Source: a virus
Lineage: Duplodnaviria > Caudoviricetes
Strand: one strand, 5' to 3'
IMG/VR virus record: IMGVR_UViG_3300033067_001302
Location: 1 to 64,000 of that record
DNA: 64,000 nt
In this document: positions 132 through 21,502 of the stretch, in pieces
Layout: every line of letters begins with the position of its first letter
Position numbering within the stretch: the stretch's first letter is position 1
The notes under the pieces: generated by a model
The model's database searches: none
What the model was told of the DNA's origin: nothing
The model's input: the letters and a program-made list of their open reading frames with translations, nothing else
Translations under genes and position numbers: made by a program

Positions 132-148
132 CTGAACACCTCTATTCA

Positions 149-581: not shown

Positions 582-1053
582 GTTCTCCGCAAGTGACGAA
601 GGCAAGCTGTTCTACATCATTGGGGATTTCCCGGTGGCGATGTTCGAATTCGACGGTATGGCTTCAGCCGATATCCTGTCGTATCGAGGACTTGTGAACA
701 TTAACAGCAGCGAGACCGCCCTGCTTTACATTGGCTCAAGGGTTCCACAGCCGATCAATGGTAAGGTAGCCACCTTCTACGTCTTCCTCTACGATGAGAA
801 GGTTGTTGGACTCCCAACACATCTCTACGACGAGTCCAGCAATCCAATCATCTTTGTGGAGCTTGGAAAGGACCCCGTCCGTAGCAATGCAAGGTATGGA
901 GACAACCTACCACTTGCTCCAATTGCTATTACTGTTGCCAAGTCGGCGCTGCTCAAGCTTGCTCAGGTCGATAAGGACAGCGAAGCTCAAGAAGAAAAGA
1001 GTGGTTTTGTGAAAACGCTCCGTGAAATGTTCCTGGACTTTTTCAGAGCTTGA
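568..1053 (+). CDS. hypothetical protein
   Basis: 161-aa ORF overlapping the end of the KTSC gene; no motif recognised. Confidence 0.65.
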   Translation: MTTNRFSASDEGKLFYIIGDFPVAMFEFDGMASADILSYRGLVNINSSETALLYIGSRVPQPINGKVATFYVFLYDEKVVGLPTHLYDESSNPIIFVELGKDPVRSNARYGDNLPLAPIAITVAKSALLKLAQVDKDSEAQEEKSGFVKTLREMFLDFFRA

Positions 1054-1941
1054 TCACTCGGGATCAGCCGACTTACGGATGACCCAGTTGATGTCGTTCA
1101 CTTGGTAAGGAACTCCTACCTCGGCGCAGAACGCCTTGACACACGTCCAACCTTTGTACTGCTTCAACTTGCCTTTGAGCAGTAGTGACAGCCTTGCGGC
1201 ATACAAGCCATGAGCAAGAGCGAACTGTTTCACATTCACAACCTCGTAGAAAACTTCGCCAGTTGGAGAGTAAAGTAAAATGTCTTTGACGTGCAAGTAG
1301 TGGCGCACTTCCCCTTGTTTGAACTCCGTTCTCGGCGACGAATGCTTTCCGAGATGAGCTTCTCGCATCCCGTGGACATACTCGGGTGTTTGCCACTTTT
1401 CTTTCATGCGCGCGTGATTTGCAAGTCCGATTTTCTGGCGGTGCTCCTGTGTGAGAGACTTACCTCTTGTTGGACTTGGACGCCCATACATTGGATTCTT
1501 CTCACCTTTGTGCCCCGGATGACCTGCTTTGAACTGAGAAGCGATCATGTTGGGATTTGTTAGGGCGCGCAAGCGACAGTTTTCCTTAAAGGTCAAAGAG
1601 CGTGAAGGTTCATAAGAAGCTCGGTCAGCTTTCTTGCGAATGTTCAAGATGCCCGAGCACCAAAGTGCGTCTAGGTATTCCTGCTCTTTTTGCTGTCGCT
1701 GCAATTCAGTAGATGCTTCCATCACCTCCAGCACTTCAAATACGAAACTACCTTCCCCATACTTGTTGAAGCAGTTTTGCATTTTCTTGCTGTGATGTGT
1801 TCCCCTCCTCAAAGAGGACAAATGCCCCCGAAGTCGCCTTTTGAACTCTTTACAGCTTCCGATATAGAAGCTTCCGTTCGCGCGACAAGTGATTTTGTAA
1901 ATGCCGGATTTCTTGCTGTGCTGGTTGTATGAAACTTCCAC
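1054..1941 (-). mobile_element. GIY-YIG homing endonuclease with NUMOD-type repeats, fused to the displaced C-terminus of the methyltransferase
   Basis: SGIYKITCRANGSFYIGS...R...H...EQEYLD. The last 28 aa (VKAFCAEVGVPYQVNDINWVIRKSADPE) copy the C-terminus of the upstream gene. CTACTTA lies 5 nt before the GTG. Confidence 0.9.
1072..1141 (-). repeat. recoded 70-nt duplicate of 1967..2036 (methyltransferase 3' end)
   Basis: Manual alignment: 60/70 nt identical. Nine differences are synonymous and one is V/I. Confidence 0.95.
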
Positions 1942-1963
1942 ACAACTAAGTAGGGGACCGAAT

Positions 1964-2602
1964 TCACTTACGGATGATCCAGTTAATGTCGTTTACCTGA
2001 TAGGGAACGCCTACTTCCGCGCAGAATGCCTTGACAGCATTAGCCACGCTATCCCAAGGCCAATCATCACCGAAAATAGCGCCGCCAGGAGATAGTAGCT
2101 CCCAATAAGCGATAAGGTCGTCATACACATCCTTTTCGTCGTGACTTCCATCAATGTAGATCAAATCAGCCTGGAGTTCGAAGTCCCGCAAAAAGGAAGC
2201 TCCAATTTGGCTTGGCATCGACAATGGAACGATCTTGTCAGCACACCCGGCTTGGATCATGTTGCTCAAGAACCTCTTGTAGAAGGTTGGGCGGCCATTC
2301 TCCATTTCAAGGTGCTTCTTGAGCTCAGGATCTCTCCAGTGCTCCTTCGAACCGAGCCAAGTATCAATGCAGATCACAGCCGTGTCAAGGTCCAAGGCTG
2401 TACAGGAGTTCGCAAGGTTGGCTGCGCTCAATCCCATCCAGCTACCAACCTCAATGATCAACTTGGGACGGAGATGACTCACCAAACCTGGGAAGATTTG
2501 CCTGTCTCCGTTCCAACCCCAAAGGCGAGTTCCTGGGACGGCAGAGAAGTCCTCGAAAGCGTCCGAGAGCTCTAGTTTTGCAAGGAGTTCCTTCTTGTTC
2601 AT
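1964..2602 (-). CDS. class I SAM-dependent methyltransferase (Methyltransf_24-like)
   Basis: IIEVGSWMGLS, DLIYIDGSH, LSPGGAIFGDDW. The ATG at 2602 overlaps the upstream TGA. Confidence 0.85.
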   Translation of the reverse strand: MNKKELLAKLELSDAFEDFSAVPGTRLWGWNGDRQIFPGLVSHLRPKLIIEVGSWMGLSAANLANSCTALDLDTAVICIDTWLGSKEHWRDPELKKHLEMENGRPTFYKRFLSNMIQAGCADKIVPLSMPSQIGASFLRDFELQADLIYIDGSHDEKDVYDDLIAYWELLSPGGAIFGDDWPWDSVANAVKAFCAEVGVPYQVNDINWIIRK

Positions 2603-2811
2603 CGTCTTTCCTTCAAAGAAATGCAAATCAACTTCGTCTTGGAGCCCGGAATGAATCCAACCGTGTAGTTGTACATCCGGTTGAACTCATCTCCCATAGC
2701 CACGATCTCGTGCATCGCTTCTGGTGTGAAAGTCAAGGAAAAAGTGAAATCCACGCCTTTCCCTCTCACAGCATCGTGACGAGCACGAATGAGCTCGCGC
2801 ACAGTTGCCAT
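2599..2811 (-). CDS. hypothetical protein
   Basis: 70-aa ORF with stop/start overlaps on both sides. Confidence 0.65.
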   Translation of the reverse strand: MATVRELIRARHDAVRGKGVDFTFSLTFTPEAMHEIVAMGDEFNRMYNYTVGFIPGSKTKLICISLKERR

Positions 2812-3155
2812 CAGTTGGCCTGAGCTTTCTCCCGCTTGCCAACAAGCTTACCAGTTGTCGGATCGCGAGAAATCACAATGTCTTCCTCTGGTTCCTCAAC
2901 TTCATCGGTAGCCAGTGTAACAACTTGAGCCCTTGCCTTCTCCTCGGCTTGCCTCTGGAGAGCTTCGCCCATCTCGTTCCAACCCTTCACGTAATCCTCC
3001 GAAAGGATCAGAACGCCAGGATTCGCTTCGCTTTCCTCAAGGCGGACAGCTCGGCAGTGATCAACGACGCTCTGTTGCGTGATGATGCACATTGTCAAGA
3101 GCTCACGGATTTGACCAACTACTTGGTCGCTGAACTTGTAGACCTTCTTAGTCAT
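2811..3155 (-). CDS. hypothetical protein
   Basis: 114-aa ORF within the operon. Confidence 0.7.
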   Translation of the reverse strand: MTKKVYKFSDQVVGQIRELLTMCIITQQSVVDHCRAVRLEESEANPGVLILSEDYVKGWNEMGEALQRQAEEKARAQVVTLATDEVEEPEEDIVISRDPTTGKLVGKREKAQAN

Positions 3156-3185
3156 TGCTTTTTTCCTTAGTCATGGCTAGAGTGT

Positions 3186-4004
3186 TTACTGCTTCGCGAC
3201 TTGTTCAAGCCTTTCCTTGTAAAGCTTCAGGGCTTCCAGGGCTTCCGCGGGGATGTTCTCTGGAATAGAGTTTTCCAGGTCGATTCGGATGATCAAATCC
3301 CCGACCCTGGTCTCGTTGGGCCCCCTTGGGATTCCACCACCGGCAACCCTCATGGGAGACAGGGGTTGAAACCCAGCAGGGATCTTCAACTCCTTCTTAG
3401 TCCCATCAAGGAGTGTTACAGTCTTGGTTCCACCAAGAACCAAGGTTGGGTAATCAACCGGCACAGCCGTGAGAACATCGCCATTGTGGCCGAACTTGTA
3501 TGGTCCATTGACTCGGAAGGAAACAATCAGTTCGACACGAGTTCCTTCAATCTCCTCTCGGAAAATCAAGGAAATGCCATCCCTGCAACCCTTCGGGAAC
3601 TTGAATTTCTGAATGTGCTCGTATGGAGTGGATTCAAGCCCTTTGCCGACACGACGAGTCTTAACCAAGTTGATCGGCACTTCCCTCTCGCCACCCTCAA
3701 GGACTTCCTTGATTGAAATGTCGATGGTGATGCCAGTCCTGATTGTCCTATTGACGAAAGCATTGGCGAAAGCGTACTCAAATGGGTCAAATGCAGGCCC
3801 GTTCAAGGAATAGTCATACTCCTGCCTCTTCTGTGGATCAGAAAGAGTGGAGTACGCTTCGTTGACTTCCTTCATCTTGGCTTCCGCCGTACTATCCCCA
3901 GGGTTGCGATCGGGATGGTACTTCTTTGCCAATTCCCTGTAAGCAGCCTTGATCTCTTCGGGGGTAGCTTCAGGCGAAATGCCCAGGATCTCGTAGAACG
4001 TCAC
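3186..4004 (-). CDS. dnaJ: DnaJ-like co-chaperone (J domain plus C-terminal domain, no zinc finger)
   Basis: FYEILGIS...[17 protein letters not shown]...[11 protein letters not shown]; C-terminal GDLIIRI. Confidence 0.9.
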
Positions 4005-4495
4005 AGCTTCTTCTTCCTTTTCTTCCCGGTAAACTGAACTCCACCAACGGGAGCCTTCTGGTTAGCAGCCGATTCAAGAATCCCATTGGCAACCATAGCA
4101 GCCAAGGAGCCACCTGTCATCGTAGGGAGCGGAGGAGGAGGAGGAAGAGTTGAAACACGGCCTACGTCAGCTTCAAGTTGGCTTCGGGCTTTCTCGACCC
4201 TTCTAAGGCCCAACAGGCCGTATCCAGCAATGTCCTGGTAGGGAGACTCTCCAAGGGCATCCCTGTCAGTCGCAATTCGTTTCATCTTGTCGAAGATGCG
4301 CACCAACGCCAGAGCGTCACCGTACTGAGAAGGTTGGATTCCATTTGGATAGAGCAAACGCAAGAACTCCCCTGCGTCGTCAAAGCTAGATCCATAGGCA
4401 GCGTTCTTCACGTCAACAAGTGCTCCGACCCTCTGGCCGAGCGATTCGTAGTTTTCCTTTGTCATGGGGACTACCGTAGTCCCTGTTCGACCCAA
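4001..4495 (-). CDS. nucleotide-modification-associated domain 1 (DUF1599-like) protein
   Basis: KNAAYGSSF...RIFDKMKRI...[13 protein letters not shown] motif pattern. Confidence 0.65.
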
Positions 4496-4497
4496 AG

Positions 4498-4983
4498 TTA
4501 ACCGATGCGGTCGTAAATCAGGTACGAATGTGTTGAGAGGACTTTGCTCTCAACAATCTTCCACTTTGTGGTATCAAGGGAAGGGAAAAAGGCATCACCT
4601 GGATGCCGTCCGTATACCCTTGTAAGGTATACCCTGGAGGCAAATGGGAGAGCTTGACTGTAGATGTCAGCTCCGCCAATCACCATAACCTCGGCTCCTT
4701 GGGAGAAAAGAGTTGCAAGTCCCAATGCCTCTTCCCAGGACCTAGCAATGTGAATGCCAGTACCCTCAAGAAGAGAACGACTCAGGACGATATTCCATCT
4801 GTTTGGAAGTGGCTTTCCAATGGACTCATAAGTCTTACGACCCATGATAACGCTCTTCCCAAGAGTGAGCTCCTTGAACCTTTTCAGGTCCCCAGGAGCA
4901 TCCCAGCTAGGGAGAGAGCCGTGGTGCCCAATGACCCCATCATCGTCCGCAGCCACAATCAAGCTTACTTTTGTTTCCATCAT
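4498..4983 (-). CDS. folA: dihydrofolate reductase
   Basis: SLIVAA...VIG...LP.W..PGDLKRFKELT...VIMGRKTYESIGKPLPNR...VIGGADIY. Start reassigned to MMETKV. Confidence 0.95.
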   Translation of the reverse strand: MMETKVSLIVAADDDGVIGHHGSLPSWDAPGDLKRFKELTLGKSVIMGRKTYESIGKPLPNRWNIVLSRSLLEGTGIHIARSWEEALGLATLFSQGAEVMVIGGADIYSQALPFASRVYLTRVYGRHPGDAFFPSLDTTKWKIVESKVLSTHSYLIYDRIG

Positions 4984-5011
4984 ACCATAGAGAGTCGCGC
5001 TCGGTTGAAAC

Positions 5012-5185
5012 TCAACCTCCAGCAGTAGGATGAAGTTGGTCAACCTGCAATTTCAGTTTGATCACCGTGAATCGAAAAGGTGACTTGTGCCTGTAATTCA
5101 AGTAGAAAACCAGCCCAGCAGGTCGGTTCATCGGTTGGATCGCTACAATTTGCGACGCTATGGCTGGGAAAATGTTCCTCAGCAC
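5012..5185 (-). CDS. 57-aa miniature paralog of the major capsid protein Gol-like segment
   Basis: Hand translation from GTG: MLRNIFPAIASQIVAIQPMNRPAGLVFYLNYRHK. It aligns to the window's own MCP segment IVRRVFAGLVANEVVSVQPMSLPSGLLFYLDY. Confidence 0.75.
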   Translation of the reverse strand: MLRNIFPAIASQIVAIQPMNRPAGLVFYLNYRHKSPFRFTVIKLKLQVDQLHPTAGG

Positions 5186-5190
5186 AGCGA

Positions 5191-6054
5191 TCAGTTCTTC
5201 CAGCTTTGCATCGCCGCTGCAAGCTCGTGGTCTTCCTTGAAGATTTCATCATCGTGGAAGACCGTGGTGGGCTTGCCATCCTTCTTCGGAGGAGTGACTG
5301 GCTTTGCTGTGGGAGCAAAGTGCTCAGGAGCCTGGATCAGCTTCGGGCCAGTGAGCGGAGCATTGGGCTTGAAAGAAGCTCCGTCCGTGACAGCATCCTT
5401 CCCAAACCTCTCGAAGATCGCGTCGAGCTCCTTCTGGAAGTCAGAGGTCTTGGTCTTCTGACCCTTGCCCTTTCCGGTGCTCGGAACCTTGCTGTTCATG
5501 AGGACTTGTGGACCCTTGAACGAGTCGTTCGAGTACCACACGTTCTTGTGCCACGTTCCCATGTGCTCGTTGAGGATGATGGTTTCGCCATCGGAGTTCA
5601 TGAAAACAACCTTGGAGTAGCCAATGTAAGCCTCCAGGGTGGCGCGAATGAAGGAGTTCTTCAAGATCGAAGCCGGATTCTTGTAGTTCTCTGCAAGCAT
5701 CCTCGCGAACACTGCCGAATCACTCTCTTTGGCGGAAGTGAGGTTGGTCAGCGAACGAATGATGCCGTTGTGAGCAAGAGCGAGCTTGTTCTTCACGACC
5801 CAAAACGGGTGAGTATTCTCGGGTGTCACGTCGCCGTGGGTCTTGATACGGAAGTGCACGACCATCTTGCGAAGCGGTCCAGCTTCCTGGTACGCATCCC
5901 AGAACTCGTTGAACTTCATGAAGCCCTTCGAGACAACAACCTTGTCACCGGTTGCGTACATGAAGCCCGCTCCGTCCGAGTTGGCCTTCCACATGGTGCG
6001 GAAACTGTCTGCCGAAACCATGACCTTCTCGGGCTTCACAACGATGATACACAT
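5191..6054 (-). CDS. class II glutamine amidotransferase (Ntn hydrolase)
   Basis: N-terminal MC; NSDGAG; HFRIKTHG; NTHPF; LAHNGII; SDS. Confidence 0.85.
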   Translation of the reverse strand: MCIIVVKPEKVMVSADSFRTMWKANSDGAGFMYATGDKVVVSKGFMKFNEFWDAYQEAGPLRKMVVHFRIKTHGDVTPENTHPFWVVKNKLALAHNGIIRSLTNLTSAKESDSAVFARMLAENYKNPASILKNSFIRATLEAYIGYSKVVFMNSDGETIILNEHMGTWHKNVWYSNDSFKGPQVLMNSKVPSTGKGKGQKTKTSDFQKELDAIFERFGKDAVTDGASFKPNAPLTGPKLIQAPEHFAPTAKPVTPPKKDGKPTTVFHDDEIFKEDHELAAAMQSWKN

Positions 6055-6110
6055 TTGATTCTCTCCTCTGCTCTCTCTGTTCTTTCAACCTAATTCGTTT
6101 TCCAAGCCCG

Positions 6111-6362
6111 TCAAGTGAAAATCTTACCATCCGGTCGGAGGGTGATCCAAGGAAAGCAAGACCAAGCAGATGGAAGTTTCCAGTCAGGGGAATCGACGTT
6201 GCCGTTGTCCTCAAGAGAGTACAAGCCGCCAACCTCGAACCACCCGCTCCAGTGCTCTGCTCGTTCTGTACAGACCACCTGTCCGTCAGAAATCACCTTG
6301 AAGGCAAGGCCCCCGCCGTCGCCCGTTCGATATTCAGATCCCAGTGGTAGATTGAGTTTCAT
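6111..6362 (-). CDS. hypothetical protein
   Basis: 83-aa ORF preceded by a sigma70-like promoter. Confidence 0.55.
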   Translation of the reverse strand: MKLNLPLGSEYRTGDGGGLAFKVISDGQVVCTERAEHWSGWFEVGGLYSLEDNGNVDSPDWKLPSAWSCFPWITLRPDGKIFT

Positions 6363-6368
6363 GGTGGA

Positions 6369-6396
6369 ACCATAACCACCATCACCAGGAAGTCAA
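6369..6396 (-). promoter_or_regulatory. sigma70-like promoter
   Basis: TTGACT-16 nt-TATGGT just upstream of the ATG at 6362. Confidence 0.5.
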
Positions 6397-6539
6397 CGGT
6401 AGTGCTGAATCAATCCGTTGGTATAGAAAATGTGCCACGGCAAAAGGTGGCTGGCAGCGACGTAGTTTTTGCTCTTTTCAGGAACAACTGTCGCTTCCCG
6501 GAGCTCGTATTCCTTCCCAACCACCCAAGTCTCCTGCAT
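6393..6539 (-). CDS. small hypothetical protein (48 aa)
   Basis: MQETWVVGKEYELREATVV...; fills the gap on the coding strand. Confidence 0.45.
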   Translation of the reverse strand: MQETWVVGKEYELREATVVPEKSKNYVAASHLLPWHIFYTNGLIQHYR

Positions 6540-6543
6540 CACA

Positions 6544-6831
6544 GATGGGTTGTTCAGCATCGTAAGCAATGGACCATTCTGCGAGGATCTACAAAGCCTT
6601 TTCAAAGGCATTGGAATCAACTCGCAGGTTATCAGCCTGAAAAACGGTTACGATGGGCAATCTACGGAAGCCAAACGCTTGATGGTTTGCGGGAACAGAC
6701 AGGTATTGAAACTTATGGATTGGCTGTATACAGGGTCCGCGATCCACCTTGAGAGGAAACATGAGAAGTACCTCGCTCTCAAAGCGAACCCTGTATCCAG
6801 GAAGTATCCTATACAGCAACAGCTCCCTTGA
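6544..6831 (+). pseudogene. C-terminal fragment of a LAGLIDADG endonuclease, antisense to thyA
   Basis: FSIVSNGPFCEDLQSLF...RLMVCGNRQVLKLMDWLYTGSAIHLERKHEKY is a typical LAGLIDADG C-terminal half. No LAGLIDADG helix or clear start is present. Confidence 0.65.
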
Positions 6832-7879
6832 TCGCTGCGTGCGACTGATAGTCGTTCAGCTTGACGTGTTCCAAACGGAAATCATCAATGTTCTTGATTG
6901 ATGGGTCAAGCCAAAGTTGAGGCAACGGAAGTGGGGCGCGCGTCAATTGCTCTTTGACTTGCTCTAGATGAGTTTCATAGACATGCAGGTCTCCAAAGGT
7001 ATGGACAAACTCCCCAACTTCCAAACCCGTCACCTGGGCGATCATATGGGTCAGGAGAGCGTAGGAAGCGATGTTGAATGGAACTCCCAGGAAGGCATCA
7101 GCGCTCCTCTGGTAAAGCTGGCAATTCAACCTCGTTCCACCATGAGACACCCGGAACTGGAACAGGGTATGGCATGGGGGCAAGCTCACTTGATCGCAGG
7201 TTGCAGGGTTCCAACCCGTGACAATCAACCTGCGGCAAGACGGATTCGTCTTGATTCGCTCGATCACACGAGCAATTTGGTCAATTTTAGAGCGCTTTGG
7301 TGGTATCTCCGCGACAACCTTTTTTGGGTCCATTGGACCGAGTGGGGCCGAATATGGGGCGGAGTTAATAATGCTGTCGTACTTATCCATCGTTATCGAA
7401 CTCGCTTCGCCATTCTGTATGAGGCCATGCTGAACACCAAGTTTTGACAAAATAACATCAATTTCTTCAACATCTTCGGGAGTTCGAACATCGAATTCCG
7501 TGGCGCGCGAGGGGGAGCTATCAATTGCCTCCCACTTCCTCCACAAAGGACCATAGATAGGTCCCAGGTCGCCTTCTTCGCGTCCAAACTTCGCGCATTG
7601 CTCCTTGGTGGCCCACTCGTCCCAAATGTGGTTATTCTGGGCTTGGAGGTCCTTGACGTTGCTGCTTCCGCTAAGGAACCAGAGCAACTCCGAGGCAATC
7701 AAGCGGAAAGGAACCCTCTTCGTGGTGAGCAAGGGAAATCCGTCACGGAGGCTTACACGATATTGTCTTCCGAAAACAGAATAATATGCCTCTGCTGTTC
7801 TGCCATTTTGGATCAACTCTCCATTGTCTAGGATGTCTTCAAGAAGACGCTTATAGATTTCATCAATGTGTTCACTCAT
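6809..7879 (-). CDS. thyA: thymidylate synthase with a long internal insertion
   Basis: FPLLTTK, ELLWFLSG, IWDEW, LPPCHTLFQF, QRSADAFLGVPFNIASY. The ATG at 7879 overlaps the stop of the upstream endonuclease. Confidence 0.97.
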   Translation of the reverse strand: MSEHIDEIYKRLLEDILDNGELIQNGRTAEAYYSVFGRQYRVSLRDGFPLLTTKRVPFRLIASELLWFLSGSSNVKDLQAQNNHIWDEWATKEQCAKFGREEGDLGPIYGPLWRKWEAIDSSPSRATEFDVRTPEDVEEIDVILSKLGVQHGLIQNGEASSITMDKYDSIINSAPYSAPLGPMDPKKVVAEIPPKRSKIDQIARVIERIKTNPSCRRLIVTGWNPATCDQVSLPPCHTLFQFRVSHGGTRLNCQLYQRSADAFLGVPFNIASYALLTHMIAQVTGLEVGEFVHTFGDLHVYETHLEQVKEQLTRAPLPLPQLWLDPSIKNIDDFRLEHVKLNDYQSHAAIKGAVAV

Positions 7880-8553
7880 TTGTTTTCCTTTCTGCGCTTC
7901 CAAGCCTCTCTCATCTTCGCTTTAGTCTCTTCGCTTCTTTTGAGTCCAAAGTTTGGATTATTGGAGCCAGTGTTTTGTTCCCGCAATTTCTTTCGGGTTT
8001 CCGCTGATACAGCATGACCAAGCTTTGCTTCAGAAATGGCTTCTCTGTGCTCCTTGGTGAATTCACGACCAATGTGAGATGCCCGTATCCTTTCTTTAGT
8101 TTCTTGACTTTGCGGGTGTCCTTTTCGGCCCGTAAGAGCTGCACTTACTTTCTGGTATCGTTCTTCACCTCTGAGTTGTGCCTTGCTAGCACAACTCATT
8201 TTCAGTTTTGCCTCCGGTGAATGCCGATACCCCAAAGTAGATCCTGCGGTTGGCGAAAGGTTGAAAGAAGAATCCTCACCAAAGAGGAGGTCAATATGTT
8301 CCTGTTCACATTCAATGAGCATCTCTTCTTCCACCAGCTTCACCACTCCAAACACAAACTGCTCAGCCCCGTATTTGTTCCACGAACGCTGAAGTTTCTG
8401 ATTTGGATGTTTTCCTATACGGAGCAAGTAGAAGTGAGCCTTGTAACGTCTTTCAATATCAACAGACGAACCGTAGTATATCTGACCTGTTATCAGATTG
8501 GTAATCGAGTAAACGCCGGAACTCTTGCCAGTGAATTGAGTTACTAGCTTCAT
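7876..8553 (-). mobile_element. GIY-YIG homing endonuclease with NUMOD3-like repeats
   Basis: SGVYSITNLITGQIYYGSS..IERR...H...EQEHID; HSPEAKLKMS-type repeats. Confidence 0.9.
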
Positions 8554-8583
8554 AGTGAGTAGCTTTGGTTTTAGTACCAAACA

Positions 8584-8703
8584 CTAGGGCCCGCGGCGGT
8601 TCTGGTAGCCGAACACGCTGTAGTAGCCTTCCTTGGTCCTGCCATTCCCAATGTATTCGCCATTCTCAAGGATATGGCGGAGCATTTCCTGATATTGCTT
8701 CAC
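8584..8703 (-). pseudogene. thyA: displaced 5' remnant of thyA (39 aa)
   Basis: MKQYQEMLRHILENGEYIGNGRTKEGYYSVFGYQNRRGP* is a ThyA N-terminus. Its GTG overlaps the TGA of the upstream gene. Confidence 0.9.
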
Positions 8704-8945
8704 GACTTCACCGCAACTTTCGAGAACTGAGGGAAGATCATCAACTCCTTGGCGGTGATCTTCGCATTCATTCGATCAATGACCTGCTGAATTGTCATGC
8801 CATCAGCAACGGACATGATTTCAAGGACTCTCTTCAGATCCGAGGCCGAAATCCAAACAATCTGCTTGGGTGCTGCGGGCTCTGTGGTTGTAGTGGTTGG
8901 TTCACTGTTCTTGCGTCGAGTACGCTTTGGTGCTTTCTCTGTCAT
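8700..8945 (-). CDS. hypothetical protein
   Basis: 81-aa ORF whose stop overlaps the thyA remnant start. Confidence 0.65.
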   Translation of the reverse strand: MTEKAPKRTRRKNSEPTTTTTEPAAPKQIVWISASDLKRVLEIMSVADGMTIQQVIDRMNAKITAKELMIFPQFSKVAVKS

Positions 8946-8989
8946 GGAGATAGCATAGTGTGCGGACCGAGAAGAAGTTACCGGGGAAG

Positions 8990-10177: not shown

Positions 10178-10194
10178 GTCCCTAAATAGGGCAT

Positions 10195-10461
10195 TTACCT
10201 CCGACCAATAGACTCAACGAGCACCGGCTCCGCCACTTTCACCAGTCCACTCTCAAAGAGCTCATTGAGTTGGGGAATGGTTGCCTTGACTGTGTACCCG
10301 TCCATCCAATCAAAGTACGCAGTGACCTCAATTCCCTTTTCGTTGAAAAGGTTCCGGGAAGTGCCCTTTTTGAGGATCACAAACCCGCCAACTACCTTTG
10401 GGGGCTTTGCGTCGTCAAATTCCGTTCGCTTTTGCAATGGTCCGTAGTAGTAATAGCCCAT
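10195..10461 (-). CDS. hypothetical protein
   Basis: 88-aa ORF with AGGAG SD. Confidence 0.7.
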   Translation of the reverse strand: MGYYYYGPLQKRTEFDDAKPPKVVGGFVILKKGTSRNLFNEKGIEVTAYFDWMDGYTVKATIPQLNELFESGLVKVAEPVLVESIGRR

Positions 10462-10490
10462 CTTTACTCCTTTTCATGTCAACTGTAAGT

Positions 10491-13463: not shown

Positions 13464-13517
13464 TCGTTACCTTTGGTAGAGGGTAGCTACGGACTATGCA
13501 CCTATTTCAGGCTGGAG

Positions 13518-13763
13518 TCAACCGTCTTTCCGTTTCAGACCACAGTCTCGTTCTTCCGTGCACTCCGTCAGGTATTCGGAGATAACCTTGGCACACTTCG
13601 AGCAAACAAGCAACCTCCCGGCTCCCTTTCGATGAAGCACAGCGTGCTCAATGCTCGTAAATACCCATTCCATGTCAAGGCTCCTTCCGCACCAAGAAAG
13701 TTGCCTTTCCTTGTCGGCTTTCACGCACTTGATGTAATCAGGACGGCGCGGCATTATGGCCAC
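13518..13763 (-). CDS. small Cys-rich hypothetical protein
   Basis: 81-aa ORF with WCGR and VCSKC. Confidence 0.6.
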   Translation of the reverse strand: MAIMPRRPDYIKCVKADKERQLSWCGRSLDMEWVFTSIEHAVLHRKGAGRLLVCSKCAKVISEYLTECTEERDCGLKRKDG

Positions 13764-14017
13764 TCTGAACAGGCGAGAATTCCCTTCTTTGTCATGAAGT
13801 CAGCCATCACACCAATTTCATGACCACCTTCATCCCAGGTTGGCGTTGTCTTTGGGTCAATTTCCCGCACTTCGATGACCTTGCTTCTGTACTCGGATTC
13901 GTCGAACGAGAGCTCCTTGTTAACGAAGTTGTTTGCTTCCTCAATTGAAGTCGCCACAACCCAATACTTGGCCCCGCCATCGTCCTCAACCAAATAAGCC
14001 TTGTTTTCGCTTTCCAT
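13754..14017 (-). CDS. hypothetical protein
   Basis: 87-aa ORF with a purine-rich SD. Confidence 0.7.
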   Translation of the reverse strand: MESENKAYLVEDDGGAKYWVVATSIEEANNFVNKELSFDESEYRSKVIEVREIDPKTTPTWDEGGHEIGVMADFMTKKGILACSEWP

Positions 14018-14029
14018 TTTTCCCTCTTT

Positions 14030-14401
14030 TCAAATCCATCGTGTAGGAACGTGATTCTTGTACTTCCGGTAGGTGTATCGGCAGCACGAATCAAAATGAA
14101 GAATATCGGACCCTGGCTTGTGACAAGAGCAAGTACAGGGTTCTGTCTGCTTCCAATTGAAGCCATTCACCAGAGCAAGTTCATCGAGCTTCTCCTGGGC
14201 CCAGAGAGCCATTGACTTGTCAACTTCCAGGATGTGCTCATGCCCAGGATCAAGCACTTCTTCTTCCTTGAAGGTGGGGCTGTGCGTGGTGACAAGCCAC
14301 TCAATGAACTCCACATTCCTTCGAATTTGCTTGTCTTCTCGGATTTGGCCGAAGTTGTTGAACTGGATCGACACAAAGAGCTTCTCGGGCATGGGTTTCA
14401 A
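14030..14401 (-). CDS. hypothetical protein
   Basis: 123-aa ORF downstream of a sigma70-like promoter. Confidence 0.65.
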   Translation of the reverse strand: MKPMPEKLFVSIQFNNFGQIREDKQIRRNVEFIEWLVTTHSPTFKEEEVLDPGHEHILEVDKSMALWAQEKLDELALVNGFNWKQTEPCTCSCHKPGSDILHFDSCCRYTYRKYKNHVPTRWI

Positions 14402-14428
14402 TGTAACCCACTACCCGTGAGAAGTCAA
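14400..14428 (-). promoter_or_regulatory. sigma70-like promoter
   Basis: TTGACT-17 nt-TACATT. Confidence 0.55.
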
Positions 14429-15450
14429 CCTTCAAAGAAGGTCTCCAGTCTTTCTCGCCATTTTTCCATGTCATCGCTCTCCCAAATGACAAGCACTTGA
14501 TACCCTTTCGACTCAAGGTAGGCGATTTTCCTCGCATCTTTCTCCCATTTCTCGGCAGCAGTATAGCTATCCCCAGGAATGCGGATTACATCCTCGGCAC
14601 TGTACTTCCTTGGGTTGGCGTGAATGTAGTCTCCGTTGATTTCAATGGCAATTTTTCTCTCAATACAAAGTTCATCAACCAATCGGTTGCCAACAATTTC
14701 TTCCGACTTAAACCCAAATTCTTCAAGCCTCAACTCAGCTCTGAGTCGTTGGTGAAGTTTACTGAGCTTCCCCCAATGGGTTCCAAATAGCCTCTCCACG
14801 TAAGCTGGATCATTCATTCTTTCCGTTTGAAACTCACTTCTCCTCTGTCTCTCTTCTGGCAAATTGACAGCTTTCTTGATGCCAGCACTCATTCTAGCTC
14901 TTGTGGATGGATCGCTCCATCGCTCCCTTGAGTTGAGCGAGTGTTTTGCTTTTGTCGCATCTGACACGACCACCAACCGGCCTGTGTTTGACTCGGAGAT
15001 GGCCCGCCGAACCTCCGGGAGTTTGGAAACATTACTGACTCCGTACTTTGCCTGCACCACCTCCTGAATGCGCAATTGCGTCGAGGGTTTTGAAAAGCCA
15101 TTTTGCTTTCCTTGACAGGAGAAAGAGCAGAACTTCTTCGGCTGACCTCTGTGGAAGCCAGCGGACCCACCACAAGTCAAGCACGATGGAATGCCAAACT
15201 TAGCCACATAGAGCTCGGCTCGTTTTTCAAACGAGTCATGTCCAAGGGCATATCGCTTGAACTTGCCTCGATAGAAAACAGGACGATCCCCACACAAGCC
15301 ACAAGCACAAGACGGTGCAACTCCACCATGCTCGACTTGGACCACATACTCTTCAAGAGTAAGAGAATGGGCAGACTTAACATGTTGCGTTAGCTGCCCG
15401 CCAAGATTATTCACAAACACTTCATGACAAATTTCACACGCAATGCTCAT
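14425..15450 (-). mobile_element. Vsr/DUF559-like (PD-(D/E)xK) putative homing endonuclease with zinc fingers
   Basis: N-terminal CEIC...H...H, CACG and CLTC...FCSFSC. C-terminal VDEL...IAIEINGDYIH...KD...LESKGYQVLVIWESD. ATACTTA lies 5 nt upstream. Confidence 0.8.
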
Positions 15451-15504
15451 ACAGCTAAGTATAGCATGGGATGCTGAAAGTGTTAAGCGTGCGAATATAC
15501 TAAA

Positions 15505-18003
15505 TTAGTTGCACTTGGAGGAGCCGCAGTCGAGGCAGGTCACGCAGCCTTGCTGGTAGCTGAGGTTGGTGGACCCACAATCCGGGCACTTCTTCTGGCT
15601 GGCCTTGGTTCCGTCCTTGATGTAGTTCTTCAACACCCTGGACATAACCTTGGAGAAGGAGAACAGGTCGGACTCTTTCTCAGCACCCTTGAGGAGTTGC
15701 TCCACGACGTACTGCACAGGAGCTCCGTGGCGGAGAGCCAAGGAGATTGTCCTTGTGAAGGCGGCATGGGTTGCGTTCTCAAAGATGTTGCCAATGTCCT
15801 TGATGATGGTCTCGTTCTCAGGGCTCTCGAAGTCGTAGTGGAAGTCGTACTCCGCTGGGTTAACCTCTCCATTGCGCTTGGCAATCTTTCCCTCACGGAC
15901 ACGCTTTGGAAGCGTGATGTGCTTGGAAAGTCCGCCCATTACCTCGTAAGGACGACCGGAAAGCTTTCCGATGAAGATTGTCCACTTCTCACCTTGGATG
16001 GTTGGGTGATAAACGTCGCACTCCAGCTCGGCAGGACGCTTCGGAGCATGGTGTTCAACAAACATCTCCTCTTCGACATCCGAACCACCTTCTGCGGAGA
16101 GAATCACACCGTCACGGCAGCCATCGCGGTAGATCGTGATTCCCTTGCAGCCAGCTTCCCAACCCTTCATGTAAACCGCCTTCACGGTCTCCACAGAGGC
16201 GTCACGAGGGAGGTTGGTGGTGTTGGAGATGGAGTGGTCGATCCACTTTTGAGCAGCGCCCTGCATCTCCACCTTGGCAACCCAATCCACATCAGCAATT
16301 GTCGACTTCCAGTACGGGGATTGCTCCACGTCCTCGTCACCCTTTTGGTTGATTTCCTTCCAAGCAGCAAAGCCTTGGTTGTAAACCTTGTACTCTGTCC
16401 ACTTGTCGCCCTGGGCATCCGTGAAGTCAACCCTTGCATTGGTGTCGCTTGGGTTGATCTTCTTCCTGCGAAGGTAGAATGCAGCGAAAACGGCATTCTC
16501 GATTCCAGAGGTAGTTCCGAAGCCCATCACAGCTTTTGCCAGGATAGAAGTGGAACCGGCTGGAGCGGTGGTGTTGTTTGCAATGTTCCTGCGTCCGTAC
16601 TTCAGGTATGCCTCGTAGAAGTCAGGACGGGCGTCCCAAATCCTTTGAAGGAATGGGTCATTCTTCTCCAGGTCGTGGCTGAATGCTGGGAATGCCCCAC
16701 GCTCCTTGGCGAGTTCGATGCTGGAAGCGTAGCTGTTCAGGGCAAGCTGCTTGTAGAGCTCCTCAACGACACGGATGCTTTCCTCGGAACCATAGCGCAT
16801 TCCCAGGGCTGCAACAAAGTCACCAACTGCGGTAACTCCGAGACCGGTGCGACGGCCTCGCTCGCAAGCTTGACGGATGTTGGTCCAAAGTCTCTTCTCT
16901 GCTGCTTTGATGTGCTCTGGCTCAGGGTCGTTGGCAATCTTTGCCAGAATTCGGTCAATCGACTCCAGCTCCATGTCGATGATATCGTCCATGAGACGTT
17001 GAGAGTGGCGGACCACCTCGCCAAAATGAACCCAATTCACCGCTGCGTTCTTGGTGTACGGCTGATTCACAAAGGAGAGGGTGTTGATCAAGAGCAGACG
17101 GCAAGAGTCATATGGAGAAAGGGTGATTTCTCCGCATGGATTGGTCGAGGAGGTCTTGTACTCCGGGTAGTTGTTCGCTGGGCAGTATTTCATGATCGGG
17201 TCCCAAAAGAGAAGACCCGGCTCTGCGCTTGCATGGGCTGCTGTCACGATCTCGGTCCAAAGGGAACGAGCGTCAACCATCTTGCGAACCTTTGGGGTTG
17301 GCGAATCAACAGGAAAACGGAGCTCCACATCCTTGCCGTCCCTGACGGCTTCCATGAACTCGTCGGAAAGGCGAATGGAGATGTTTGCGCCAGTGACCCT
17401 GGATTTGTCCTTCTTGATATCAATGAAGGTTTGGATCTCCGGGTGGTGAACCGAAATGGTGAGCATCAAGGCTCCTCTGCGCCCATTCTGAGCCGTCCTG
17501 CGGCAGGCATCAGAGAAGTCGTCCATGAAGACAGCAATGCCGTCTGTGGTGCCTGCGGCGTTGCTGGTCTGCATTCCCTTTGGTCGAATAGGGGAGATGT
17601 CAAAGCCGACACCACCACGTCGCTTCATGATCTCCTTCTCTTCACCCATGGTGTAGGTGATACCCGACATAGAGTCATGTGGGGGTGGAATCACGAAGCA
17701 ATTCGACAAGCTCATGAGCTGGTACTTGTTACCAATGCCAGCCATTGGGGAACCCTGGGGGATGACGTACTGGAACTTGTCCAGGTAGGAGAAAATCTTC
17801 TCCTCTGAGAGTGGGTTCTTGTACTTGCTCTCGATCCTTGCGAATTCCTTGGCAAGACGGCGGTGCATTTGCTCTGGAGTTGCCTCCACGAGCTCACCAT
17901 TTTCATCTTTCAAGGCGTACTTCGACACAAACACGTTGGCGGCGAGGGTGTTGCCTTCGAAATACTCTGTTGACTGCTGAATTGCTTCCTGAAACGAAAC
18001 CAT
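15505..18003 (-). CDS. nrdJ: class II (B12-dependent) ribonucleotide reductase
   Basis: SNCFV, RRGGVG, ANISI, STNPCGE, SCRL, APAGSTS, ISNTTNL, GITIYRDG; C-terminal zinc ribbon. Confidence 0.95.
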   Translation of the reverse strand: MVSFQEAIQQSTEYFEGNTLAANVFVSKYALKDENGELVEATPEQMHRRLAKEFARIESKYKNPLSEEKIFSYLDKFQYVIPQGSPMAGIGNKYQLMSLSNCFVIPPPHDSMSGITYTMGEEKEIMKRRGGVGFDISPIRPKGMQTSNAAGTTDGIAVFMDDFSDACRRTAQNGRRGALMLTISVHHPEIQTFIDIKKDKSRVTGANISIRLSDEFMEAVRDGKDVELRFPVDSPTPKVRKMVDARSLWTEIVTAAHASAEPGLLFWDPIMKYCPANNYPEYKTSSTNPCGEITLSPYDSCRLLLINTLSFVNQPYTKNAAVNWVHFGEVVRHSQRLMDDIIDMELESIDRILAKIANDPEPEHIKAAEKRLWTNIRQACERGRRTGLGVTAVGDFVAALGMRYGSEESIRVVEELYKQLALNSYASSIELAKERGAFPAFSHDLEKNDPFLQRIWDARPDFYEAYLKYGRRNIANNTTAPAGSTSILAKAVMGFGTTSGIENAVFAAFYLRRKKINPSDTNARVDFTDAQGDKWTEYKVYNQGFAAWKEINQKGDEDVEQSPYWKSTIADVDWVAKVEMQGAAQKWIDHSISNTTNLPRDASVETVKAVYMKGWEAGCKGITIYRDGCRDGVILSAEGGSDVEEEMFVEHHAPKRPAELECDVYHPTIQGEKWTIFIGKLSGRPYEVMGGLSKHITLPKRVREGKIAKRNGEVNPAEYDFHYDFESPENETIIKDIGNIFENATHAAFTRTISLALRHGAPVQYVVEQLLKGAEKESDLFSFSKVMSRVLKNYIKDGTKASQKKCPDCGSTNLSYQQGCVTCLDCGSSKCN

Positions 18004-18017
18004 AAGCTATCTCCTGT

Positions 18018-19496
18018 TCACTCTTCCGTACGGGAGGATGTCAATTGCATTCCCGATTCATTTGCTCTGTTCAAAACGTTCCTGAAGGACCGTTGAACGA
18101 AGTTTCTTTCTTCCTTGGCTTCCCGCTCTTGTTCTGCTGTCAAGCCTCGGACCTCATCCTCGGAGAGGAGAGAGAACCTTGAACGAGCGGTGTCGATCTT
18201 GATTGGGAAGCTGAGTCCGTCGATACCATTTCTGTTCTTGGCGATAAACAGGGTGCCGATACCAGTTGCTTTTTTGCTCTCAGGGCGTCCAAGACCGACC
18301 ACGAAGTCACAAATGTGAGCCTGGGCGTACGCCTCTGCCATGTTGGCAAGAGAGATGATGTCAGCCTCAGCACCTTCCTTGTTGGACTGAGAGGCTGTCC
18401 AAATAGGAACATCCAATTCCGAGGCGAATGCCCTGAGCTCCTCGAAAATCTTCTTGAGCTCCATCCTTGGAAGGTCGTACTTCTCTGTAGACCGCATGAT
18501 CTGAGCGTAGTCGATCACCAACATGTCAGGGCGGAAGCCCTCAAGCGCAAGCTTGTCGATGAATGACCGAAGGGTTTGAACCGTAGCAGTTCCCGTTGGG
18601 AAATACTTGATCCTGAGCTTTCCAAGGATTCCGGCGTTGTCGGCGTAGTATTTCTTGATCTCATCCATACGCTCCGCACAATCCAAGGAGTCAATTCCAA
18701 GGAGGTGAGAGTCATAGCGAACTCCAACAGCACGCTCAGCAAGCTCAAAGGTGAAGTGAAGGACGTTCTTTCCTTGAGTCAATGCCTGCGCACCAACGTG
18801 GGTAAGCCAGTGGCTCTTTCCCACGCCAGTTGGGGCAATCACGACATTCAACTCGCCAGAGCCAGTTCCTCCATTGAGAATCTTCTTGGCGTCCAACGAA
18901 GGGCCGTCAATCATATCCCAATTGGAGGAGCGAACACAAATGTTCGTCCTGATCGTGTTGCGAAAGGTAACAGAGTACCTCGCATCAATGTCGTCTTCCA
19001 GAGACAGAGCTGGAGCGGTTGCTTGTCCCGAAGAAATAGCCTTCTTGATGATCTCCAGGGAGAGTTCGTACTTATCTTCCGACTTTGCAAGCTCAGCGCA
19101 CTGAAGAAGGGCACTTGCAAAGGAACGGTGGCGGCAGAATGCCATTGCCGTTTCCTTGACGTACTGCAAGTCACCGTAGTCCTTCTTGATCTTGGTGTTC
19201 TTGATGACCCCAATCACCTGCTCAGCCAAGGCAGGGTCATTCACGACCTTGAGTTCGTCCCTCATCACTGTGATGAACAGGTCCAGGGACGGAAACTCCT
19301 TGTACGCCCTGTAGTACGAGAGGTATTTGCTTGCCATCGTACGGAGGTAGGCATACTCGAAATACTCGACATCAAGGATCTCTGCCGCTTGGGCCGCCCA
19401 AACCCGATCCGTCAAGAGAGCCTGAACGATCTTCTCCTGAAAAGCACGGTCGAACTTGGCAAATGAGTTCCTGTTGTCTTCACTTGTGGTGGACAT
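18018..19496 (-). CDS. replicative helicase, DnaB/T4 gp41-like
   Basis: APTGVGKS, FTFEL, LVIDYAQ, WTASQ, KNRNG. Confidence 0.9.
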   Translation of the reverse strand: MSTTSEDNRNSFAKFDRAFQEKIVQALLTDRVWAAQAAEILDVEYFEYAYLRTMASKYLSYYRAYKEFPSLDLFITVMRDELKVVNDPALAEQVIGVIKNTKIKKDYGDLQYVKETAMAFCRHRSFASALLQCAELAKSEDKYELSLEIIKKAISSGQATAPALSLEDDIDARYSVTFRNTIRTNICVRSSNWDMIDGPSLDAKKILNGGTGSGELNVVIAPTGVGKSHWLTHVGAQALTQGKNVLHFTFELAERAVGVRYDSHLLGIDSLDCAERMDEIKKYYADNAGILGKLRIKYFPTGTATVQTLRSFIDKLALEGFRPDMLVIDYAQIMRSTEKYDLPRMELKKIFEELRAFASELDVPIWTASQSNKEGAEADIISLANMAEAYAQAHICDFVVGLGRPESKKATGIGTLFIAKNRNGIDGLSFPIKIDTARSRFSLLSEDEVRGLTAEQEREAKEERNFVQRSFRNVLNRANESGMQLTSSRTEE

Positions 19497-19675
19497 TCAA
19501 TTCTCCTTGGTCATTCCAACCCTCTTGAAAGGTAGGGGCTGGAAGAGTTAGCTTACATCAGCAAGATTTGGGATTTACCGCTCTGTTCACTTGGTTGCGT
19601 TTTTTAACATCGGCGAGAAGCGGCACTCACTGCCATCGGTAAGAGGTAAGTACCTCTCGAGCTGGTGAACTTCCT

Positions 19676-20725
19676 TTATCCGATATTCGAATTTTGAACC
19701 GAGTGGATCAATGCCACTTGCATGTCATAAACAAGGGCATCGTAGTTGATGCTGCTCACAATCTTGGAATTCAGCAGGGATTTGATGAATTCCATCTTGT
19801 TGCAGGTGGGAGAGAAGTTCTCTACAGCGAAGTCAATCTTCTTCATCTGCTCGTAGGACATAGTCGACTCTGTGAGAAACATCAGTTGCCAGTTCCTCCA
19901 AATCATGTCCCCGCAGGAAGCGACGGAACCGTAAGCCTTGAGGGCCTTCTTTTCCATTGACTTGGTCTTGGCAACCTCAACAAGCTCCTGGACGCTTCGG
20001 TCTTTCTCGTTGTCCAGGAGTTCAGGGAAGAGTTTCAAAGCCGTCTTGAAACCAAGTCCTGGGACTCCAGGGATGTTGTCCGAGTCGTCTCCTGTAAGAG
20101 TCCTTACCAAGGCATAGTTCCGAGCCGGGATGTTCACAAATTCATCCTTCCCAACCTTCACCTTCACGATGGGACCACCATGGAGTGATTTGTCCGCAGG
20201 GTTGTAGAGTTGAACATTTGGATCATCCAGGAGTTGGTAGAAATCCCTGTCGGAGGACACAATGACTTTCATTGCGTCGACCGATTTCAGCTTGTTTTGG
20301 ATCAGGTAGGCGATCACATCGTCGCATTCGGTATCTGCAACGTAAAGTTGACACACAGGGAGGTGCTTGAGAGCAGCCACAAGGTTCTTGGTCTGCGTCA
20401 ACTTGTTCTCCTTGTCGTCCTTGATCCACTTCTTCGAAGGGACTCCATTGGGAGGAAGACCAATGGCCTTGAACTCCGAGCTCACCTTCATCCGGTTGGC
20501 TTTGTACTCAGGGAAAATCTTCCTTCTCCTGGGACATCCCCCGCCTTGCTCCCAAACGACGTATAGGCGCACTGGGTTGAACTGTTGGGTGAGAGAGTGC
20601 AGAGCCTTGATGAACCCAACAACTCCCCCGCATGGGTCCCCTACGGTCGTTACGGCGTCATTCGCCATGAAGTGCCTCACGAAGATGTTCATAGAATCGA
20701 CTATTAAGATTGGCCTTTCGTTCAT
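19676..20725 (-). CDS. 5'-3' exonuclease / T4 RNase H-like
   Basis: ILIVDSMN, RKIFPEYKANR, ECDDVI, SSDRDFYQL, GDDSDNIPGV. The ATG at 20725 overlaps the HNH stop (TAATG). Confidence 0.93.
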   Translation of the reverse strand: MNERPILIVDSMNIFVRHFMANDAVTTVGDPCGGVVGFIKALHSLTQQFNPVRLYVVWEQGGGCPRRRKIFPEYKANRMKVSSEFKAIGLPPNGVPSKKWIKDDKENKLTQTKNLVAALKHLPVCQLYVADTECDDVIAYLIQNKLKSVDAMKVIVSSDRDFYQLLDDPNVQLYNPADKSLHGGPIVKVKVGKDEFVNIPARNYALVRTLTGDDSDNIPGVPGLGFKTALKLFPELLDNEKDRSVQELVEVAKTKSMEKKALKAYGSVASCGDMIWRNWQLMFLTESTMSYEQMKKIDFAVENFSPTCNKMEFIKSLLNSKIVSSINYDALVYDMQVALIHSVQNSNIG

Positions 20726-21393
20726 TAATTTACCTTCTTTGCAAAAGTGTCTGTCTTGCGATGGCAGTCGTCGCATAGAGTTCGTCCATTGTCAAACTCC
20801 CACAACTCACAGCATTCCAAAGCATCCTCCAATGTTTTCACTGAATTCTCCTTGAGAATCAAGGCGAACTGTTTAATGTGGTCCGCATTAAGAGTTCCAC
20901 CCCGATGATTGCAGAACTTGCAGGTGTAGTTGTCTCGTTCAAACACCTTCTTCCTCCAGTCTTGCATTTTCACACAATCACGAATTTGCTTGTAAAGAGG
21001 AGATTTTCGTTGCTCGGGCGGCAACCATCGAGGGTGATTTGGTCCAATGTACTTGCCACCCCACATACCATTTTTCGCAACAGACATCCTGCGCTTGGTT
21101 TCTTCGGAGAAGACAATACCTTTTCGCTTTTCACTCATCAAAGCCGCATGTTCTGGGCGCACTTTACCAAAAAATGGATGATTTACTCCACTTTTGGCTT
21201 TTGCTTGCTTTTCCTTTGTTCGAGCAGTATGCTTCGTTGATAAACGAGCTTCAATTCCTGCCTTTTGAATCATATTGCACACAGTTTGTGCAGAACAGCC
21301 AAAGTGATGTGCAATCTCCTTCATTGACCACTGCTCGTCGATATACAGCCGACGCAGCTCTGGTTCTGGAATTATGATTCGCTTCTTCGCCAT
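20725..21393 (-). mobile_element. HNH homing endonuclease with NUMOD3-like repeats
   Basis: WRKKVFERDNYTCKFC...LNADHIK...NGRTLCDDCH. ATAGTTA lies 5 nt upstream. Confidence 0.9.
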
Positions 21394-21401
21394 TGCACTA
21401 A

Positions 21402-21458
21402 CTATGCTCTGACGAAGAGGTTGTATCCATCAATGATAAGGATTGGTCGTTCTTGCAT
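21402..21458 (-). pseudogene. displaced 5' remnant of the 5'-3' exonuclease gene (18 aa)
   Basis: MQERPILIIDGYNLFVRA* versus the working start MNERPILIVDSMNIFVRH: 12/18 identical. Confidence 0.9.
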
Positions 21459-21502
21459 GGAGTTACCTATGCAAGAACTCTCTCACATCTCGCGGTATTT
21501 TT

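Follow-up and report, generated by a model that had tools for sequence, protein, structure and literature searches.

Gene-end replacement beside free-standing homing endonuclease genes at three loci of an uncultured phage

Three host genes in the phage DNA analysed here, encoding a methyltransferase, a thymidylate synthase and a 5′-3′ exonuclease, each adjoin a gene for a free-standing homing endonuclease. The DNA (hereafter the window) comprises the initial 64 kb of a viral contig of 82.6 kb from IMG/VR (IMGVR_UViG_3300033067_001302; Caudoviricetes) with an estimated completeness of 23%. At each locus, the endonuclease gene lies between a short, dead copy of one end of the host gene and the complete working gene, and every gene of the three loci is on the minus strand, to which all coordinates at these loci refer. 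A preliminary description of the window, made from the letters alone, had proposed that three intronless endonucleases share one architecture, that both gene ends are hit, and that the working gene stays intact while its old end is left as a scar. Pfam and PHROG assignments and alignments bear this out: two of the endonucleases are GIY-YIG proteins and one is an HNH protein, each beside a duplicated host-gene end (the 3′ end in the methyltransferase, the 5′ end in the thymidylate synthase and the exonuclease), the working genes are full length, and empty alleles in relatives match the remnants. Relatives were sought by scanning viral contigs with the three host proteins, and the close ones share 89-99% residue identity for the exonuclease and the methyltransferase. 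The contigs compared include L001, L002 and L016 from IMG/VR, L126 from ENA, L125 from Logan, the metagenome contig L123, and L020/L015 (contig 3300015608_001385).

At the methyltransferase locus, the working chimeric gene (1964..2626; Methyltransf_24, Pfam E 2e-17) ends in a replacement 3′ end of foreign origin (1964..2060, with the duplicated part at 2036..1966). GIY-YIG homing endonuclease gene 1 (1054..1941; Pfam E 7e-10, PHROG) follows, and the displaced native 3′ end lies at 1054..1141. In a correction to the first reading, this remnant is not free-standing: it makes up the final 29 codons of the GIY-YIG open frame (1141..1054), comprising 24 remnant codons, then five codons and the old stop. 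The endonuclease gene lacks a stop codon of its own and continues in frame into the former methyltransferase end, both in the window and in L016. Between the two copies (2036..1966 and 1141..1071), 61/71 nucleotides and 22/23 residues are identical, and of the 23 codons nine differ only synonymously and one changes the residue. The empty site of L020/L015, where GIY-YIG gene 1 is absent, lacks window positions 1965..1142. The single methyltransferase 3′ end of L020 matches the remnant at 71/71 nucleotides and the working end at 61/71, and its identity to the remnant extends over the next 23 nucleotides, the old stop codon included. Along the gene, the window and L020 are 97-100% identical down to about position 2061 and 85-87% identical from there to the stop, while the stub is 100% identical.

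A second arrangement of the methyltransferase locus is found in L016, which carries a diverged variant of GIY-YIG gene 1 and yet another version of the new methyltransferase end. Identity between L016 and the window is 94-95.5% in the backbone and 93% in the stub, compared with only 52-73% in the new end and the endonuclease gene. The two cassettes share the same right boundary, so that two cassette variants occupy one site.

At the thymidylate synthase locus, the arrangement is reversed and the 5′ end is affected. The working chimeric gene (6809..7879; Pfam E 1e-104, with a full-length alignment to relatives) starts at ATG 7879, overlapping the stop codon of the GIY-YIG gene (ATGA), and not at 7903 as previously proposed. 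Its foreign replacement 5′ end spans about 42 codons (7752..7879). GIY-YIG homing endonuclease gene 2, which also carries NUMOD3, occupies 7876..8553 (Pfam, PHROG); its reading frame is open to 8580, where there is an alternative TTG start. The displaced native 5′ end (8584..8703) consists of a GTG start, 39 codons and a TAG stop that lies 3 nucleotides before the TTG and 32 nucleotides before the ATG of the endonuclease gene. This stub runs on from the upstream DNA at about 96% identity to L020. Over 33 codons, the two copies (7855..7757 and 8694..8596) share 21 identical residues, with 15 codons differing only synonymously and 12 changing the residue.

Three relatives (L020, L021 and L022) provide empty thymidylate synthase sites. 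GIY-YIG gene 2 is absent from all of them, window positions 8595..7752 are missing, and position 8596 joins 7751 with 5 nucleotides in between. Their 5′ ends match the remnant at 92/99 nucleotides and 32-33/33 residues, versus 55/99 nucleotides for the working end. The working protein is a chimera: its first ~42 residues are of the L023/L027 type (82% residue identity to the L023 start and 70% to the L027 start), and the next part is nearly identical to L020/L021. L027, which is a more distant relative, bears this type of start natively, straight after the upstream gene, and has neither endonuclease nor stub. Therefore, a natural lineage with a different insertion-site sequence exists and is a plausible source of the new end. 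L023 retains the old thymidylate synthase stub, the last ~45 GIY-YIG codons and the new-type start.

Separately from its replaced start, the thymidylate synthase gene is mosaic far downstream, with a lineage-specific insert region at 7288..7527 whose length and sequence are not the same in the window, L020/L021, L022 and L023. Beyond thymidylate synthase on the downstream side, L021 and L022 have additional DNA, which was considered as a site of further cassettes and contained only small open reading frames, with no nuclease signature by eye.

The 5′-3′ exonuclease locus has the same 5′ layout with an enzyme of the other family. The working chimeric gene (19676..20725; FEN/RNase H-like, Pfam 5_3_exonuc_N E 9e-25) starts at ATG 20725, overlapping the HNH stop codon (TAATG); homologues begin at the same methionine, and the start first assigned at 20776 is wrong. 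Codons 1-17 form the replacement 5′ end (20675..20725), of which codons 1-12 differ from the native allele. The homing endonuclease gene (20725..21393) combines HNH, NUMOD3 and helix-turn-helix regions (PHROG HNH 1e-19, Pfam NUMOD3), and its translation shows both CxxC pairs as well as the His-Asn-His residues. The displaced native 5′ end (21402..21458) has its own ribosome-binding site, an ATG, 18 codons and a TAG; it lies 44 nucleotides after the dUTPase stop, as in L123, and stops 8 nucleotides before the HNH start. Twelve of 17 residues are identical between the copies (20725..20675 and 21458..21408), with five codons differing only synonymously and five changing the residue.

All close relatives among the viral contigs bear the HNH gene, so an empty exonuclease allele was sought through members of the exonuclease protein cluster. 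Two members begin like the stub, and L123 is the contig of one of them. In L123, dUTPase is followed by 44 nucleotides and then by exonuclease, whose first 51 nucleotides match the remnant at 48 positions and the working end at 36. Scanning viral contigs for the exact pattern of the exonuclease stub gave no match because the stub is polymorphic, and a single scan of metagenome contigs returned distant exonuclease relatives only. The HNH gene is absent in L123, L003, L004 and L005 and frameshifted in L127. In L128 only its last 73 codons are left, leading into the new exonuclease start, and the stub is lost.

In the more distant relatives L003 and L004, an opposite-strand gene of 300-325 residues with no assigned function (L003 4849..5751; L004 5039..6016) lies between dUTPase and exonuclease, the position occupied by the HNH cassette in the window. 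The dUTPase-exonuclease intergenic spot is an insertion hot spot.

The empty alleles place all three insertion points inside coding sequences: 71 nucleotides before the stop of the methyltransferase gene, following codon ~37 in thymidylate synthase, and following codon 17 in the exonuclease. The copies in each pair are colinear and 0.7-0.9 kb apart. As a check on chance resemblance, all 64 kb were scanned in six frames with loose cut-offs (9/17, 13/33 and 10/23 identical residues), and each working end matched only itself and its remnant; in a tblastx comparison of the window with itself, the three end/remnant pairs stand out. A chance origin of the three duplicates is excluded. The endonucleases were described at the outset as intronless, and no Rfam group I or group II intron model was matched in the window at gathering score or, over 1..22500, at E<=1. 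Stub content overlaps that of the working gene, and the flanking pieces do not simply abut as exons would; each working gene is complete and colinear with its homologues.

Across the three loci, the relatives with empty sites agree with the remnant at the junction, as had been predicted (71/71 vs 61/71, 92/99 vs 55/99 and 48/51 vs 36/51 nucleotides for remnant vs working end), and the contrary outcome named in the preliminary description, an empty site closer to the working end, occurs at none of them. Its suggestion of a foreign replacement end likewise agrees with the L027/L023 type of the new thymidylate synthase start and with the methyltransferase end, where the remnant is identical to a relative's functional allele and the working copy departs from it at 10/71 nucleotides, which argues for import. 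From these comparisons, the working ends are imported and not locally diverged. The overall observation of gene-end replacement at three loci is confirmed.

Evidence of movement is clearest for the HNH cassette. The window and L001 share 99.1-99.2% identity in the HNH gene and 51/51 nucleotides of the new exonuclease end, compared with 95.2% in the flanking dUTPase gene and 96.7% in the exonuclease body. Their exonuclease stubs are only 87.7% identical and belong to different natural allele classes. A near-identical cassette beside two different native stubs therefore implies a recent transfer between backbones, each keeping its own old end. The HNH gene of L002 and L126 is a further variant, diverging in its DNA-binding part (helix-turn-helix and first NUMOD3 region) and joined to another new end. 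In general, the cassettes are patchy among relatives and occur in several variants and decayed forms, and foreign tracts adjoin the endonuclease genes at the loci. The states present comprise empty, intact (window), variant, frameshifted (L127), and endonuclease tail plus new end (L128 and L023). Since the decayed copies in L023 and L128 keep the new end and the endonuclease tail, imported ends outlive the nuclease.

We interpret each locus as a mobile cassette in which a free-standing homing endonuclease gene is paired with a foreign copy of the adjoining host-gene end, and assign this reading a probability of about 0.85. The steps we propose draw on what is known about homing endonucleases of the GIY-YIG and HNH families (PMC2988022) and about mobile endonuclease open reading frames in fungi (PMC3630166). 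The enzyme would cut or nick the empty allele close to where the inner edge of the stub comes to lie, and the break would be repaired from a co-infecting genome that bears the cassette, which would thereby be copied in; the gene body would serve as the repair arm on one side, and the stub, or DNA beyond it, on the other. The imported end restores a complete chimeric gene with no splicing required, and the native end is displaced beyond the endonuclease gene, where it persists as a dead stub. The sequence differences of the imported end would shield carriers from cutting. In the first event at each site, a donor endonuclease beside a naturally resistant allele may have joined a broken recipient with no homology on the stub side. 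At the two 5′ loci, the start signals of the stub may drive a short leader frame that ends 3-32 nucleotides before the endonuclease start, and the new host-gene start may be translationally coupled to the endonuclease stop. Such coupling of expression is suggested by the geometry, since the stub signals are kept and both new host starts overlap the nuclease stop.

The 5′ cassettes could also act as a one-way ratchet, in which the nuclease can decay and the endonuclease tail and foreign gene end cannot be lost, because the host gene's sole working ribosome-binding site and start lie in or overlap the endonuclease 3′ end. The old start signals would by then be diverted to the leader mini-frame that feeds the endonuclease. 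Both decayed examples (L023 and L128) retain exactly the endonuclease tail and the new end; we nonetheless hold the ratchet tentatively and consider it somewhat doubtful.

Several observations weigh against the cassette model or parts of it. The immunity step seems to be its weakest part, because the working exonuclease copy equals the empty allele near the insertion point and the L002-type end is closer still. The working copy is identical to the L123 empty allele from 14 nucleotides upstream of the insertion point onwards, and the L002/L126 variant differs by only a few bases within the 40 nucleotides upstream of it; given this near-identity, protection by recoding would need positions further upstream, or the loss of upstream context. 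Moreover, the stubs may be passengers and not working homology arms, since L128 lost its stub with the exonuclease gene still intact. At the left junction of the thymidylate synthase stub, the window and L023 disagree by a few bases, which would fit either separate insertions or a later deletion. Finally, the duplicated-end layout, suggested in the preliminary description to be a general mode of spread, is present in 3/5 free-standing GIY-YIG/HNH genes of the window and is therefore frequent, not universal: the other two, both GIY-YIG genes, show no such duplicate. At the fourth GIY-YIG gene (56263..57339, minus strand), no gene-end duplicate is found at the aligned junctions, and at the remaining one (38610..39491, plus strand), whose junctions were not aligned, none was seen in the self-comparison of the window.

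The fourth GIY-YIG gene is a clean intergenic insertion after a hairpin and is absent in G003. Near its 3′ end, a 49-nucleotide stretch (56300..56348) has several copies in G001 and G002 at 83-86% identity and probably represents a C-terminal motif conserved in related endonuclease genes. The GIY-YIG gene at 38610..39491 is absent in G003 and present in a diverged form in G004; the first 400 nucleotides of the acetyltransferase gene beside it are without a DNA match in G003 and may be a co-conversion tract.

The most serious competing account, which we consider improbable, holds that these are ordinary intergenic endonucleases that spread through flanking homology, that the stubs are debris of single imprecise repairs and the imported ends mere co-conversion tracts, and that neither stub nor new end matters for spread or immunity. 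T4-type free-standing endonucleases do cut within a neighbouring gene and co-convert flanking markers (PMC2988022), the fourth GIY-YIG gene of the window is a plain intergenic insertion, and L128 has lost its stub with no harm to the gene. This account differs from the cassette model in function only, not in structure. Single imprecise repairs would sit poorly, however, with three independent loci and two enzyme families within 21 kb, or with the recurrence of stub boundaries: the same exonuclease boundary accompanies different cassette variants and stub alleles in the window, L001, L002, L126 and L127, and the same methyltransferase boundary is found in the window and L016 despite their different cassettes. 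Recurring boundaries therefore suggest that the stub-bearing structure itself is transmitted or re-created.

Alternatively, the host's own end could have been duplicated locally at insertion, like a long target-site duplication, with the working copy diverging later and no foreign DNA involved. The 0.7-0.9 kb spacing and colinearity of the copies would suit such an origin, which is nevertheless highly unlikely: it is the unconstrained copy that is identical or nearly so to the functional alleles of relatives (71/71 and 48/51 nucleotides), the constrained working copy differs from those alleles by 14-44%, and L016 has a further version of the new methyltransferase end. The matches between remnants and empty alleles, together with the natural lineage that bears the new thymidylate synthase start, contradict local duplication. 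Insertions of the intron or intein type, or split genes joined at the RNA or protein level, deserve mention in that phage genes for thymidylate synthase and for replication are classic sites of introns and inteins and the SNF2 helicase gene of the same segment has a LAGLIDADG intein-like insert. Neither of the two Rfam searches gave a group I or II match, leading us to reject the intron reading; the colinear, full-length working genes and the stubs, which duplicate what the working gene already has and complement nothing, make this whole class of explanation extremely improbable. The same very low probability attaches to an assembly artefact, in which chimeric metagenome contigs would merge two strain variants. 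The window is indeed a metagenome-derived viral contig, but the same structures are found in independent assemblies, samples and pipelines (L001, L002, L016 and L126), and the Logan contig L125, 99.9% identical to the window, has the cassette layout as well.

Compared with known systems, the cassettes most closely resemble the mobile endonuclease open reading frames (mORFs) of fungal mitochondria, where gene-end duplication by endonucleases is documented, as the preliminary description had noted (PMC3630166, PMC6279837). Fungal mORFs make hybrid genes in Allomyces macrogynus atp6 and in atp6, atp9, cox2 and nad3 of Glomus sp. (PMC3630166), and C-terminal duplications of cob and atp6 occur in Endoconidiophora (PMC6279837). 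In these elements, a free-standing GIY-YIG or LAGLIDADG frame lies within a protein gene with no intron; a diverged in-frame C-terminal copy precedes it, and the native C-terminal part is displaced downstream. The native copy matches a close relative, and the inserted copy is diverged and apparently horizontally acquired. The methyltransferase locus corresponds to this point by point. All three loci share the endonuclease frame inside a coding gene without an intron, the diverged end that completes the gene, the displaced and unused native end, and the match of that displaced end, but not the inserted one, to element-free relatives. The phage loci differ from the fungal elements in that the host is a double-stranded DNA phage and not an organelle, that one enzyme is an HNH protein, and that the system is known here from sequence alone. 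Furthermore, the fungal duplications are C-terminal, whereas two of the three loci here are mirror images in which replacement affects the 5′ end, ribosome-binding site and start codon included, and the new start overlaps the endonuclease stop.

With the free-standing Seg (GIY-YIG) and Mob (HNH) endonucleases of T4 and its relatives, known for intronless homing (PMC2988022), the loci share enzyme families, a setting in tightly packed, co-oriented nucleotide-metabolism and replication genes of a large phage, a location outside introns and inteins, variable presence among relatives, and foreign tracts beside the endonuclease gene, as co-conversion predicts. The T4 genes are described between conserved genes (PMC2988022), an intergenic location that the fourth GIY-YIG gene does fit; the three loci instead lie inside the target gene and leave a stub of the native end. 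No form of the word 'duplication' appears in the text of that review. The T4 mobA/gene 60 pair, in which an HNH endonuclease travels with a 50-nucleotide translational bypass insert (bioRxiv 10.1101/2022.08.31.505936), is similar in that an endonuclease moves with adjacent sequence that alters the target gene and the gene stays functional. There, however, the gene is split and the ribosome bypasses the insert, while the cassettes supply a complete alternative gene end and require no recoding of translation. The gene 60 insert reportedly has a role in protecting the target, as ascribed to Bonocora et al. 2011. In the summarised account of 'genes in pieces' in Aeromonas phage Aeh1 (PMC2988022), mobE is a free-standing endonuclease gene inserted within a phage coding sequence, nrdA, as the endonuclease genes are here; that account has nrdA split into two reassembling polypeptides with no end duplicated, whereas the host genes here are whole. 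Features of group I intron-encoded endonucleases are missing from the loci, given that no intron model was matched and that the flanking pieces overlap in content. We found no phage description of endonuclease-linked gene-end duplication in the literature, the coverage of which was incomplete, so that this is absence of evidence only.

The cassettes lie in a segment (1..23 kb) that reads on the minus strand and carries nucleotide-metabolism and replication genes: a UvsX/RecA-like recombinase, dUTPase, the 5′-3′ exonuclease, a DnaB-like helicase, ribonucleotide reductase, an SNF2 helicase, thymidylate synthase and the methyltransferase. Megablast of the region against 50,697 phage records gave no match to cultured phages, and in a protein-level search the nearest cultured phage proteins were ~35% identical at most; no cultured relative is therefore available. 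Identical exonuclease proteins are found on contigs of up to 298 kb, so this is an uncultured jumbo phage.

Other insertions occur in the same segment. A 341-residue protein with a DUF559 (Vsr-like nuclease) domain is encoded directly after the ribonucleotide reductase gene (14425..15450, minus strand). Window positions 14431..15511 are absent from G003, where the flanks lie 1 nucleotide apart as expected of a clean insertion; G005 is also without a match, with one of the flanks not located there. This gene may be another free-standing nuclease element, in this case with no duplicated gene end. The ribonucleotide reductase large subunit is itself called at ~1170 residues in L127 (5232..) and L128 (5223..), compared with 832 in the window, which suggests an intein or other insert. 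In the SNF2-family helicase gene, an in-frame, intein-like insert of 1038 nucleotides with a LAGLIDADG_3 domain (11739..12776, minus strand, within the open reading frame 10491..13463) occurs in L020 but not in L021 or L022. Elsewhere in the window, self-comparison identified tandem paralogous gene blocks (47500..53500 and 59900..61800) with 27-46% residue identity, unrelated to the endonuclease cassettes.

For three elements with enzymes of two families, one set of related genomes offers a rare snapshot in which empty and intact states occur alongside variant and decayed ones. The three loci would represent a third route for selfish nucleases, which could colonise the inside of an essential phage gene by bringing a spare gene end, with no intron, intein or split gene. 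Such cassettes would account for short, unannotated pseudo-ends beside endonuclease genes, a form of cryptic mosaicism, and the resulting functional genes are chimeric at their termini and can mislead gene calling, phylogeny and pangenome clustering. If cutting takes place at the edge of the stub, sequence alone would suffice to predict targets for many phage endonucleases that are still uncharacterised. Should the ratchet prove true and general, the inner edge of the stub would mark the cut site and make targets readable from genomes, and cassettes of this kind would be a main means for foreign gene termini to be exchanged and fixed among large phages.

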